Shown piece after piece: positions 49,767-53,028 of a DNA stretch of 64,000 nucleotides. Position numbers and translations under genes: made by a program. The DNA is from an uncultured Verrucomicrobiae bacterium (GTDB lineage: Bacteria > Verrucomicrobiota > Verrucomicrobiia > Limisphaerales > Palsa-1400). Each line of letters starts with the position of its first letter. Within the stretch, counting starts at the first letter, position 1. The stretch is taken from NCBI GenBank assembly GCA_963702845.1, contig OY969763.1:1760001-1824000 (forward strand). The letters run 5' to 3'. The notes beneath the pieces were generated by a model. The model did not search any database. It was given only the letters and a program-made list of their open reading frames with translations, and was not told the origin of the DNA.

Positions 49767-50462
49767 TTAGATTTTCATTTCGCGTTTGATGCGTTCCAGT
49801 TGCTCGCGTGTTATTCCGCCTTTCTGTGGGACTTTGGGGCGGTTTGGTTTCTTCGAGACGTCAGCGTATTTTTTCAATTCCAGTGCGGCGCGGTCGCGCA
49901 TGATGGCGTTGCGTTCGTGGACGGCATGGGCGCGGATGAGACGAAAAAAGTTTTCGGGTTTTTCGTTCATGAGGGCGCGCAGTTCCTGGATGTTGCAGTT
50001 TTTGATGATGTCGTGGATTTGCAGCGCGATATCGAAGTCGGAACTGTCGCGGACGGCTTCGCGATTGGATTTGTCGGATTTTGTGCGCGAGGCGGCCAAG
50101 GCTTCGGCATGGAGACGTTTGTTTTCGGTCGCGACTTGTTCGGCGAGCCAATCGGTGTAGCCAGAGTTTTTCCAGGAGCGGAGTTGTTTGTGAGTGATGT
50201 TTTCGCAGTGGCGCTCTTTCAAGCCGGCCAAAATTTGGGTGTAGGTGAGGCCGTCGCGAAAGGCGGTGTTGATCCATTTGCGAGTGCGCGGGGAAAGGCT
50301 TTGGATAGTGCCCCAGCGGCGGCGATTTGACGCGGGTTTGGTTGTTTCACTGGTGGCGTTGGGTTCAGCCGTCCCTTCGGGACAGGTCGCCGGAGCAGAC
50401 GTAGGAGTGATGTTGTTGACGTTGGCAACATCGGTGTTTTCAAGTTGTTCAGGTGTGTTCAT
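49767..50462 (-). CDS. Phage Mu gp27/DUF3486-like protein (copy 2, intact)
   Basis: RRRWGTIQSLSPRTRKWINTAFRDGLTYTQILAGLKE...WKNSGYTDWL; C-term GGITREQLERIKREMKI. Confidence 0.65.
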   Translation of the reverse strand: MNTPEQLENTDVANVNNITPTSAPATCPEGTAEPNATSETTKPASNRRRWGTIQSLSPRTRKWINTAFRDGLTYTQILAGLKERHCENITHKQLRSWKNSGYTDWLAEQVATENKRLHAEALAASRTKSDKSNREAVRDSSDFDIALQIHDIIKNCNIQELRALMNEKPENFFRLIRAHAVHERNAIMRDRAALELKKYADVSKKPNRPKVPQKGGITREQLERIKREMKI

Positions 50463-50480
50463 AGGTTTGATACAAATATT

Positions 50481-50600
50481 TTTTTTGGGTTTTAGTGGAT
50501 GCAGGTGGTCGGTGTTGGGCGAGATTGGATGTTAATGAACGAAAGTGGGCACCCCCCCCCCCCTTTGGTCGAAAATGGATGAAAGTGGGCAATCGCGGGT
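50481..50600. repeat. Helically phased 10-bp repeat array starting ~20 bp upstream of DUF3486-like copy 2
   Basis: TGG in the same register in decamers starting 50481, 50491, 50501, 50511, 50521, 50541, 50561, 50571, 50581 (TGA at 50531, CGG at 50591); GAAAGTGGGC occurs twice. Confidence 0.8.
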
Positions 50601-51014
50601 GGTAAGCAAATCAGAGCCAGCAGCGACAAAGAATTGTCGCGGCTTGCTACGTTCGGTGCGGGAATCGGAATCGCCGCGTTGTGTTTATGTTGCATGCATC
50701 GCATAACGCGACCGATTGTGCCATAAAGTAGCTACGCGTCAAAAACTGTAGGGAAAGGAGGGAAGCCGGGGAAAGAAATGATAGTTTTTTTGAGAAAAAG
50801 GTGGTGGTTTTAGAGGGTTGGCATGGAAGTTGAGTCAACGCAAAGGCGCGAGGATGCAAAGACGCAAAGAGGACTGGAAACACGGACGGAGAAAACCACG
50901 GAGACACAGAGGTTGTTGGAAAGGAAATATTGCCATCCTTGGCCTGCTTTCGGTTGACTGTCCGCAGACACGGGTCCAGCATCAACCAACACGCGAATAC
51001 ACCTGAAACTGAGG

Positions 51015-51061
51015 CATATGTTATTATCAGGTCAAATCAGCATAATAATGAATAGTTAGCC
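51015..51061 (+). mobile_element. attI-like site heading an integron cassette array
   Basis: GTTAGCC core at 51055 with no upstream RYYYAAC stem; AT-rich, with TTATTAT/ATAATAA inverted motif; exact complement of the first cassette's R'' GGCTAAC. Confidence 0.6.
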
Positions 51062-51074
51062 GTTTTCACGCGCC

Positions 51075-51635
51075 ATGATTTTCGGAGACCCAAAAGACTT
51101 TGCGATTGAGGCGTATCACGAACCCTCCGGCTCTCAGTATGGTGGGTTTGGTAGAATGTGCATTCACATCCAGGGCATGTCCCTCGGCGATATTCGCGAC
51201 AATCACTGCTCATTGGTTCACGCTACGGACCGCATTCGAGAGGTGGCTGCTGATTTCGAGTCGCTCTGGCATGCTAGTTTCGCCGGCTTATCGGACGCGG
51301 ATGTGTTTGGTCTCATTGACCGGGAGATTTACACGGGTGATGCGTCCGAGAGTGGTCCGAGCTATGATGCCTCCGATTTTCTCACAAACACAGGCGAGAT
51401 GTTCGATGGCACGAAGACCTTCATCATCTTCCGACCGCCCGACCGGATTCACATTCTGTTTCGTCTTCGGGATGACACGTTTGGAGCTGCTTCATGTAGC
51501 GTCCAGAGTTTCCGCGGAGTTGCCGACGCCTTTGTTAGCTGGTTCGAGGAGCAGGTGCGAATGACTGCTCCACCATTTTTTCCCATCAACCCATTTGACC
51601 TGAATGAGAAAGTTCCAGACGACCGAAACGGCTAA
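51075..51635 (+). CDS. Cassette 1: Imm42-like polymorphic-toxin immunity protein
   Basis: N-terminus MIFGDPKDFAIE...GRMCIHIQGMSLGD resembles Imm42 (from memory, not searched); stop codon lies inside attC R''. Confidence 0.55.
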   Translation: MIFGDPKDFAIEAYHEPSGSQYGGFGRMCIHIQGMSLGDIRDNHCSLVHATDRIREVAADFESLWHASFAGLSDADVFGLIDREIYTGDASESGPSYDASDFLTNTGEMFDGTKTFIIFRPPDRIHILFRLRDDTFGAASCSVQSFRGVADAFVSWFEEQVRMTAPPFFPINPFDLNEKVPDDRNG

Positions 51636-51722
51636 CCATCGCGCTACACTCAAAGTCGGGAATGCCTTCTGTTACATATCGGGCGTCATTGGCACAGCGC
51701 GAGTAAGCGCGGGTCGTTAGGC
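51630..51722 (+). mobile_element. attC site 1
   Basis: GGCTAAC...CGCGCTACACTC...GAGTAAGCGCG...GTTAGGC. Confidence 0.88.
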
Positions 51723-51734
51723 GGCATCACGCGT

Positions 51735-52241
51735 ATGCAATGTTTTACACCAAGTGAGTGTTCGGAATGGTTGCAGCAGCGTGGGATTATTGAGTTTCCA
51801 TATGGCACCAAACGAGAGGCGATGACGCTTCAGTTTGAACCGCCACGCAACCCTCGGAAGCTTACTGCGTTTACTCGTGAGTTATTCGGCGCTTTTGGAG
51901 AGTTTTCAGGAGCGTTGTTGCAGTTCACGGATTGGCCGCTTTACCAGCCGGATGAGATGGCTTTGATTGTTTCGTTACGGCGCAGTCATGGCGAGCAGCG
52001 TTGGTTGATTGATGCCCCCGGCCATTTATTTGCTCCCACAGAGATGGCAGAAGCTATTGGGCATTATTATTTGGCTTCGATTTTTGATTGGAGCGTCTAT
52101 TTGTATATGGCATCTGGAGCGGGCACAGTTTATTTCTGGGAAGGCGACCTGATTGATGTATTTGGATTCGACAAAAGTATCAGCCAAAACATTCACGAAC
52201 TTGTTAAGAGTTATGATTTGCGAGTTACATATGGCGCGTAG
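51735..52241 (+). CDS. Cassette 2: hypothetical protein
   Basis: 168-aa ORF filling the space between attC1 and attC2. Confidence 0.8.
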   Translation: MQCFTPSECSEWLQQRGIIEFPYGTKREAMTLQFEPPRNPRKLTAFTRELFGAFGEFSGALLQFTDWPLYQPDEMALIVSLRRSHGEQRWLIDAPGHLFAPTEMAEAIGHYYLASIFDWSVYLYMASGAGTVYFWEGDLIDVFGFDKSISQNIHELVKSYDLRVTYGA

Positions 52242-52335
52242 CAATCCGCTGGGGACAACGCCGGTTGGGTGTTGCCAGTTCCGCTTTGCGGACTACGGTT
52301 TTAGGTCCGGCGCGCCGGAGCTCTGGACGTTAGGA
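52236..52335 (+). mobile_element. attC site 2 (degenerate)
   Basis: GCGTAGC (2 changes from GCCTAAC)...GCCGG...CCGGC...GTTAGGA. Confidence 0.7.
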
Positions 52336-52346
52336 AGCGGCAAAGT

Positions 52347-52487
52347 ATGCGAAGTGTCCTGTCGATATTTTCAGCAATTTGGTCGGCAACATTAGGGCGG
52401 CCTCTGTCATGGCAGACCGCTCTCGTGGTGGTGATCATTATTGCGCTTGCGATTGCAGTGCTGCTCCCATTTCTAGCGTCGACATGA
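52347..52487 (+). CDS. Cassette 3: 46-aa membrane peptide
   Basis: MRSVLSIFSAIWSATLGRPLSWQTALVVVIIIALAIAVLLPFLAST*, placed between attC2 and attC3. Confidence 0.6.
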   Translation: MRSVLSIFSAIWSATLGRPLSWQTALVVVIIIALAIAVLLPFLAST

Positions 52488-52503: not shown

Positions 52504-52663
52504 GCCTAACCAGAGCGCTGGAGATTTGAACAAATTATTTTGCTCTTCGCTGCCGCGAAGTGCGGACGGCGAGTTGACGATTCCTCCTTCGCCATGGCTA
52601 TGGAGGACGGGGCTTTTACAATCCGTGAGTCAGTGGGCGGCCGCCGTTGAGTTTGAGTTAGGT
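52504..52663 (+). mobile_element. attC site 3, enlarged by a 39-bp insertion and a loop hairpin
   Basis: GCCTAAC-CAGAGC-GCTGGA[39 bp]GCGGACGGC...GCCGCCGTTGAGT...GTTAGGT. Confidence 0.8.
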
Positions 52664-52667
52664 GAAC

Positions 52668-52892
52668 ATGAAGAACATTCAGCTATCTTCGCAGGAGAGT
52701 GACCGCAAAGTCGCAAGAATTGCATCACTCATCTTTATGGGTGTCGCTTGGCTGTCTCTGACGGCATTTTTAGCCTGGTACCTCACCACAAATGGAAATG
52801 CGTTGAGCCACAGCATCGTCGTCGTTAGCATCTTTTCGATTCCCCTGCTGCTTATTCCATTTCAGTTGTGGCGCTATTTCAAAAACAAATGA
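52668..52892 (+). CDS. Cassette 4: 74-aa two-TM membrane protein
   Basis: ATG 4 nt after the attC3 core; two hydrophobic helices; ends 4 nt before attC4. Confidence 0.7.
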   Translation: MKNIQLSSQESDRKVARIASLIFMGVAWLSLTAFLAWYLTTNGNALSHSIVVVSIFSIPLLLIPFQLWRYFKNK

Positions 52893-52896
52893 CTAA

Positions 52897-53028
52897 GGCT
52901 AACCAGAGTGCTGGAGATTTGAACAAATTATTTTGCACGTCGCTACCGCGAAGCGCGGACGGCGGGACGACGCCGCCTTTGCAATCGTTGAGTCAGTGGC
53001 CCGCCGCCGCTGAACTGAATATTTAGGC
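52897..53028 (+). mobile_element. attC site 4, with the same 39-bp insertion and a mutated core (TTTAGGC)
   Basis: GGCTAAC-CAGAGT-GCTGGA[39 bp]GCGGACGGCGGG...CCCGCCGCCGCT...TTTAGGC. Confidence 0.78.

Follow-up and report, generated by a model that had tools for sequence, protein, structure and literature searches.

A 39-bp insert in two attC sites of a Verrucomicrobiota genome is best read as a non-autonomous micro-element resembling the SDRs of Nostoc

The window, the whole 64,000-nucleotide stretch of DNA analysed here, contains a cassette array with four attC-like sites and four cassettes, all on the forward strand. The first cassette (51075..51635) encodes a 186-aa protein of the Imm42 immunity-protein family (PF15593, E 4e-7), and the second (51735..52241) a 168-aa protein without a Pfam match. 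The third (52347..52487) holds a hydrophobic 46-aa ORF and the fourth (52662..52892) a predicted membrane protein of about 75 aa, both without a Pfam match as well. The sites attC1 (51630..51722; 93 bp) and attC2 (52236..52335; about 100 bp) carry no insert; attC1 belongs to a different attC family from that of attC3, and attC2 has a degenerate left core, with AGC replacing AAC. Cassette 4 is enclosed by two filled sites. The first of them, attC3 (52504..52663), is 160 bp long and is composed of an attC of about 91 bp from a genome-wide family, a 39-bp element beside the extrahelical L-box base, and a second insert (52580..52613), an unrelated hairpin in the variable part of the site with a net gain of about 30 bp and approximate limits. 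The second, attC4 (52897..53028), is the last site of the array; it measures 132 bp, or 93 bp once the element is subtracted, which is the length of attC1, as the initial annotation had pointed out. Its right core reads TTTAGGC, versus the expected GTTRRRY. Both sites are decayed even apart from the 39-mer, attC3 by its second insert and attC4 by its degenerate right core. Seven stretches similar to the second hairpin insert of attC3 occur elsewhere in the genome, and further small hairpin inserts are found in attC sites of the same family at positions 1702522, 1704447 and 2761815 of the window genome (G000:C1).

No integron integrase was found in the genome, which is a single contig (best TIGR02249 match 86 bits, cut-off 265). 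IntI-like matches were present in five of the 30 other genomes of the family, and in none from the genus of the window genome. The array is a CALIN, with at least two attC sites and no neighbouring intI, in line with the definition of CALIN as a cluster of attC sites without integrase (10.1101/030866). The leader before cassette 1 (50985-51063) resembles four other places in the genome, one of them directly behind a Y1 gene, and is possibly an attI-like junction. A segment of about 420 bp upstream of the array (50425-50850) is repeated eight times in the genome.

The two 39-mers (52523-52561 and 52916-52954) are identical at 35 of 39 positions and lie at equal offset in the left arms of attC3 and attC4; their coordinates, identity and shared insertion point were all confirmed. 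With its left dinucleotide included, the copy in attC3 spans 52521..52562 and consists of GA (52521-52522), a variable 5-nt spacer, a core (52528-52542) and a hairpin (52546-52559). The copy in attC4 spans 52914..52955 and has the same layout: GA (52914-52915), spacer, core (52921-52935) and hairpin (52939-52952). Each represents a net gain of 39 bp. The GA directly left of the 39-mer probably belongs to the element, since the uninterrupted left arms of the same attC family, compared by eye, read CA in 11 of 13 cases, CG in two and GA in none.

Across the genome, the 39-mer proved not to be confined to the attC lineage. The 15-nt core, GAACAAATTRTTTTG, has 22 exact copies in the 6.03-Mb genome and none in two reversed controls, well above what chance would give; seven bases upstream of these cores stands GA in 17 cases and CA in five. 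A fuzzy search with the 39-mer recovered 12 copies at up to eight mismatches, a covariance model gave 27 matches, and a wider profile gave 28 matches at E < 0.1, with nothing in the reversed control. The working set of 30 copies is made up of the profile matches and two further variants. Assigned by eye, the hosts are attC sites (2 copies), a REP-like doublet (4), a second REP-like family (11), two more REP-like families (3 and 2), a family of CCCAGGG hairpins (6), a CTGACGG array (1) and a tandem repeat (1). Thus 28 of the 30 copies lie outside attC, in seven other repeat types that are mostly REP-like, and the proposal that the element targets attC sites is not supported. The orientation of the element is fixed within each host. 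Two of the 30 copies share one duplicated block, and the sole truncated copy (5551796) resembles a small deletion. In the copy at G000:C1 3172880-3172940, the hairpin loop is longer by about 18 bases, which themselves form a small hairpin. Long open frames cross some copies, which gives no evidence either way on insertion into genes; net gains are mostly multiples of three (36, 39, 72), and no copy was shown to be inside a real gene.

Empty hosts, in which the flanks are joined across the junction, were identified for 21 of the 30 copies at a score of 20, versus 0 of 300 random positions; 17 copies retained one at a score of 22 and 14 at a score of 25. For nine copies no empty host exceeded the threshold. 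These insert-free alleles support the view of the initial annotation that the 39-mer is a miniature, non-autonomous inserted element. The spacing of anchors drops from 49 bp when a site is filled to 10 bp when it is empty; this was seen in attC, for 21 of 23 doublet-family matches and for all seven matches of another REP family. Most hosts gain 39 bp, whereas the usual gain is 40 bp in the second REP-like family and 36 bp in CCCAGGG hosts. The junctions are reproducible and a few host bases are overwritten there: in the +39 subfamily, a host CA appears as GA or KGA when filled, the right junction being constant and the left variable. CA occupies the junction in 26 of 27 empty doublets (GA in none), in 7 of 8 and 2 of 2 empty members of the second REP-like family, and in 3 of 4 matches of the tandem host, besides the attC left arms counted above. 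In the +36 subfamilies, one base after an S-A dinucleotide is replaced by the unit. The filled/empty alignments contained neither a target duplication nor a terminal repeat, and the longest inverted-repeat candidate, the 5-bp GAACA/TGTTC, is present in some copies only and is broken in both window copies. Judged from these comparisons, the 39-mer family is very probably a mobile unit.

The anatomy of the unit is shared genome-wide: an S-A dinucleotide, about five variable bases, a conserved AT-rich core, four to five bases and a small CGC/GCG hairpin, in agreement with the AT-rich stretch plus small hairpin first described for the window copies. Conservation is much higher in the core than in the remainder of the element and extends across genera. 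Nearly every copy can form two small hairpins, with 83.8% of cells paired, a value reached by 17 of 500 shuffles; the covariation score of the hairpin was not above shuffles (396 of 500 reach it). The pair that lies outside the CGC/GCG stem varies among 22 distinct hairpins: A-T (eight), T-A (seven), C-G (one), G-T (one) or unpaired (five). No Rfam family matched the element. The search for a related full-length element found none, and profile searches of the genome revealed no half-element leading into a long element. Among plasmid records, none matched a 43-nt window stretch over 80% of its length, and five viral matches lacked the anatomy of the element. A comparison by eye of the variable parts with the target flanks gave no consistent guide-like match.

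The equal position of the inserts in attC3 and attC4 had been taken to allow that one modified attC was duplicated. With the inserts removed, the two sites are 74% identical, and their nearest empty sites are different ones (76% for attC3, 81% for attC4; four of six empty attC sites were compared). The inserts themselves differ at 4 of 41 positions, and the attC3 insert is equally distant from three copies outside attC. Duplication is disfavoured, given that each site is nearer to a different empty site and that the same-genus genome G002 has the insert at the equal spot in another attC family. Independent insertions into attC3 and attC4 would fit these comparisons best, and conversion between their similar left arms is less favoured.

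Diverged versions of the element are present in several genera of the family. Covariance-model matches in genomes of the family numbered 9 in G002 (8 with the anatomy), 1 in G001, 38 in G013, 7 in G005, 5 in G012 and 2 in G021, and the single weak matches in seven more of the 30 family genomes were judged to be chance. Among 401 genomes of the order, the core pattern of the relatives, which misses the core of the window genome itself (0 matches), is multi-copy only in G013 (36), G005 (15) and G012 (5). Eight single matches to this pattern outside the family lacked the anatomy; one diverged copy was found in another family (L184). A metagenome scan yielded four loci, three of them true and holding five copies in three host types. 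A scan of 36 of the 64 parts of a genome collection with a loose pattern gave 113 matches, among them a full copy in Verrucomicrobiales (L063) and a diverged copy in Limisphaerales (L045), the rest being judged chance. In G002, the insert sits at the equal L-box position in a different attC family, and the same array carries two variant inserts at another attC position. No empty alleles of the G002 attC family were found with the pattern used, and the limits of the G002 insert are putative. The inserts of attC3 and of the G002 attC have the foot of their hairpin in common.

The relatives also contain units within units. In G013, one host occurs empty, with +36 (L254, L257) and with +72 (L277), and a second host occurs empty and with +72 (L275, L276); among the fetched G013 loci, a second core lies within 35 nt in 10 of 38 instances. 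By these alignments, the unit nests in its own copies in G013. One G013 copy with +48 looks partly deleted. Self-nesting was not seen in the window genome. At a contig start in G005 (L295), five left halves stand against two right halves, an imbalance that may reflect slippage or assembly. At L166 (980-1240), a unit of host plus element with a period of 81 bp is present in three tandem copies; a release-factor-like gene lies downstream of them.

We know of no mobiliser described for the cyanobacterial SDRs since 2008. The element was not described in the literature searched, and the class of element is one already known but poorly understood. The best reading, by analogy, is that of a non-autonomous micro-element like the SDRs of Nostoc. 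These eight families, SDR1-8 of Nostoc punctiforme, are reportedly those of Elhai et al. 2008 (Genome Res 18:1484). Compared by description only, the SDRs of N. punctiforme and its relatives share several features with the element: they lack genes, are below 50 bp and are dispersed inside other repeats. The element is likewise embedded in eight host types, with empty versions for the 21 copies given above, and the units of G013 nest in themselves, as do SDR1 and SDR4. A fixed insertion point in a short target, as is the case for SDR5 (PMC4390886), is also common to both; further SDR background is given in PMC3116915. On the other hand, the element is longer, at 36-40 bp versus 21-27 nt, has a long conserved AT-rich core outside the hairpin, and overwrites junction bases, whereas SDR insertion is clean. 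It also resides in Verrucomicrobiota, multi-copy only in one family of the order of the window genome, whereas SDRs are described as confined to Nostocaceae (PMC5861425). By this comparison, the element works like Nostoc SDRs but fails their size and range, so we do not class it as an SDR.

Other known systems resemble the element in part. REP, BIME and REPIN sequences with RAYT (TnpA-REP, Y1 HUH) enzymes are also short hairpin units without coding capacity for which mobilisation in trans is proposed (PMC3333891, PMC3479197, PMC8266576, PMC3733652, PMC3116915), although the spread of REPs by their own transposases is still presented as a model (PMC3333891, PMC8266576). The main hosts of the element are REP-like repeats, and the genome encodes such enzymes; yet the element has no GTAG/CGTC tag 5' of a long palindrome, such tags belonging to its hosts, it flanks no RAYT gene and forms no doublet, being a passenger inside REPs. 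Like bacterial MITEs, it is non-autonomous, dispersed and structured; unlike them, it has no terminal inverted repeats, target duplication or parent IS, and it is half their minimum size (MITEs measure 70-300 bp, with 15-30-bp terminal repeats; PMC3733652). With the IS1111-attC group (ISKpn4, ISPst6, ISPa25) it shares the attC left arm, a single orientation and the lack of target duplication (PMC11187229), and true members of this group reside in the window genome. Those elements have subterminal inverted repeats of 11-13 bp located 7 and 3 bp from the ends (PMC11187229), whereas the element lacks such repeats, a DEDD transposase, a guide-RNA region and a single target, and its insertion point is 3 bp from that of the resident IS. 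It also differs from group IIC-attC introns, which the initial annotation had named as targeting attC sites, in having no Rfam ribozyme match, and the genome has no RVT_1 match; a descent from such introns is not supported. None of the four categories of REP, MITE, IS1111 derivative and intron fits the element.

What moves the element can be narrowed down to a short list of candidates. Tentatively, and at a little short of an even call, we favour the explanation that these are gene-less units of 36-40 bp inside unrelated hairpin repeats and their own copies, inserted in trans by REP-associated Y1 (HUH) transposases. The transposase would dock on the folded single-stranded host and nick it at a C|A or C|T step, and the unit would be joined or copied in, perhaps from the 3'-OH of the nick; copying from this 3'-OH would explain the overwritten junction bases. 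The conserved core would be a putative protein-recognition site. The target of the +39 subfamily is CAG/CTG, whose two strands offer a C|A and a C|T step, respectively, and the commonest hosts carry GTAG-type tags. TnpA-REP is described as cutting single-stranded DNA at C|T, on either side of its hairpin and far from it, with a group 3 enzyme cutting C|A as well; any 3'-OH may resolve the covalent intermediate, and nick priming is part of the published REP model (PMC3479197, PMC8266576, PMC3333891). In the window genome, three Y1 genes are flanked by host repeats (two repeat types; seven Y1 loci inspected), and one Y1 passes the cut-off for REP-associated tyrosine transposases (92 vs 80 bits), though this REP-linked RAYT ORF looks truncated at its start. 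Y1 genes were found in 31 of 31 genomes of the family, and their presence is therefore non-discriminating, as every genome searched had them.

Several findings count against the Y1 transposases. No copy flanks a Y1 gene, the nearest being 3.2 kb away; the alignment gives the element no GTAG tag of its own, and the attC hosts have none either. Plain Y1 strand transfer conserves target bases, whereas they are altered here (CA to GA or KGA in +39, one base lost in the +36 subfamilies), and the C|T or C|A step is missing at some sites, such as the GAC targets in G013, G005 and G012. An orientation bias with replication is stated for IS200/IS605 (PMC3333891) and was not found for the element (18/28, p = 0.18). 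A broader formulation, which we regard as speculative and rather doubtful, is that the units are mobile DNA, among the smallest known, with a protein-recognition core of their own, parasitising any folded single-stranded hairpin (REPs, attC sites, themselves) and overwriting one to three target bases on entry, by means of a new RAYT activity or of an enzyme yet to be described; the splitting of attC L boxes would also freeze orphan cassette arrays. With its defined filled, empty and doubly filled sites, conserved core, reproducible junction signature and short list of candidate enzymes, the family makes the mover of units below 50 bp directly testable.

The same mobile unit might instead be moved by an undescribed enzyme, a nuclease or recombinase able to bind the AT-rich core, with bases at the junction being overwritten in the process. 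The core is indeed the most conserved part, with its 22 exact copies and its conservation across genera, the junction pattern matches no chemistry familiar to us, and hosts without tags, such as attC sites and tandem repeats, are among the targets; but neither the neighbourhoods of the copies nor the repeated regions of the genome yielded a candidate gene, and we consider such an enzyme unlikely. An RNA route, in which an element transcript acts as primer for reverse transcription at a target nick, leaving one junction exact and overwriting the other, appears quite unlikely; a similar route has reportedly been proposed for Nostoc SDRs. It would suit the constant right and varying left junction of the +39 subfamily, the fixed orientation in each host and the switching of the hairpin pair between A-T and T-A. 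Against it, among six genomes searched, RVT_1 had no match in the window genome (a single contig), G002, G012 and G021, while G005 and G013 had one reverse transcriptase each, of different kinds; the lack of an Rfam match also speaks against it.

It is decidedly unlikely that a few founder insertions then spread passively, through gene conversion, template switching or amplification of host repeats, with the attC pair being one event copied between neighbouring left arms. Subfamilies do follow host families, and the duplicated block with two copies, the tandem triplication at L166, the unequal halves at L295 and the hairpin foot common to the attC3 and G002 inserts are all in keeping with such spread. 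However, the genome has at least eight unrelated hosts with no common flank for recombination, the +36/+72 nesting is exact in two hosts, and attC3 and attC4 are each nearer to other, empty sites.

A miniature or scar of an IS1111-attC element, moved by an RNA-guided recombinase of the IS110 family, is very improbable, and this reading is largely refuted. The genome does contain 10 IS110-family transposase genes, and two such elements are found in attC sites, one of which inserts 3 bp downstream of the site of the micro-element. Nevertheless, the 10 IS110-family loci contained no core match within two mismatches, and the ends of the resident elements are unrelated to the core, so that a descent from IS1111-attC elements is not supported. 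The missing subterminal repeats, the lack of a half-element joined to a long element, and the 28 copies outside attC likewise argue against it. IS110 genes went undetected in five of seven element-bearing genomes (G013, G005, G002, G001 and G021), though fragmented assemblies can lose IS genes, and the IS110-rich G016 (18) and G011 (13) had no convincing element copy. The element that enters attC 3 bp downstream is a 1.67-kb IS110/IS1111-type element with six copies (G000:C1 441906, 1728985, 2185912, 3665675, 4071003 and 4307023), five in the attC family of the micro-element and the sixth at a comparable target within a peptidase-like gene. A three-copy IS1111-type element with short subterminal repeats lies in other attC sites (G000:C1 96648, 1599753 and 2834462), with a premature transposase stop in two copies.

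Finally, although both window copies occupy the equal attC position, the idea of a new attC subtype in which the insert would form a large extrahelical loop, or of one modified attC that was duplicated, has a nearly negligible probability given the seven non-attC hosts, which rule out the subtype, the 13 empty left arms in the same attC family, a predicted fold that worsens, and a genome without IntI.

The natural empty site of this attC family is predicted to adopt the canonical bottom-strand hairpin fold. The element adjoins the extrahelical base and splits the L box. Removal of the insert had been described as restoring pairing of the arms; in attC3, the predicted bottom-strand R-box pairing is 0.27 with the element and 0.72-0.74 without it, and in attC4 it rises only from about 0.02 to about 0.1. 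On these predicted folds, attC recombination is likely lost through the element, and would be spoiled as a side effect of the split L box. Locking of cassettes is plausible from the folding, but there would be nothing to act on here, as no integrase was found; decay is for this reason a better reading of the element in attC than a locking device. For integron surveys, the caution is that an attC site in Verrucomicrobiota that looks long or odd can be an ordinary one with micro-inserts. In one cassette array of G002 (L231, G002:C583:1-2344), at least three attC sites hold a member of the element family, at two different positions.
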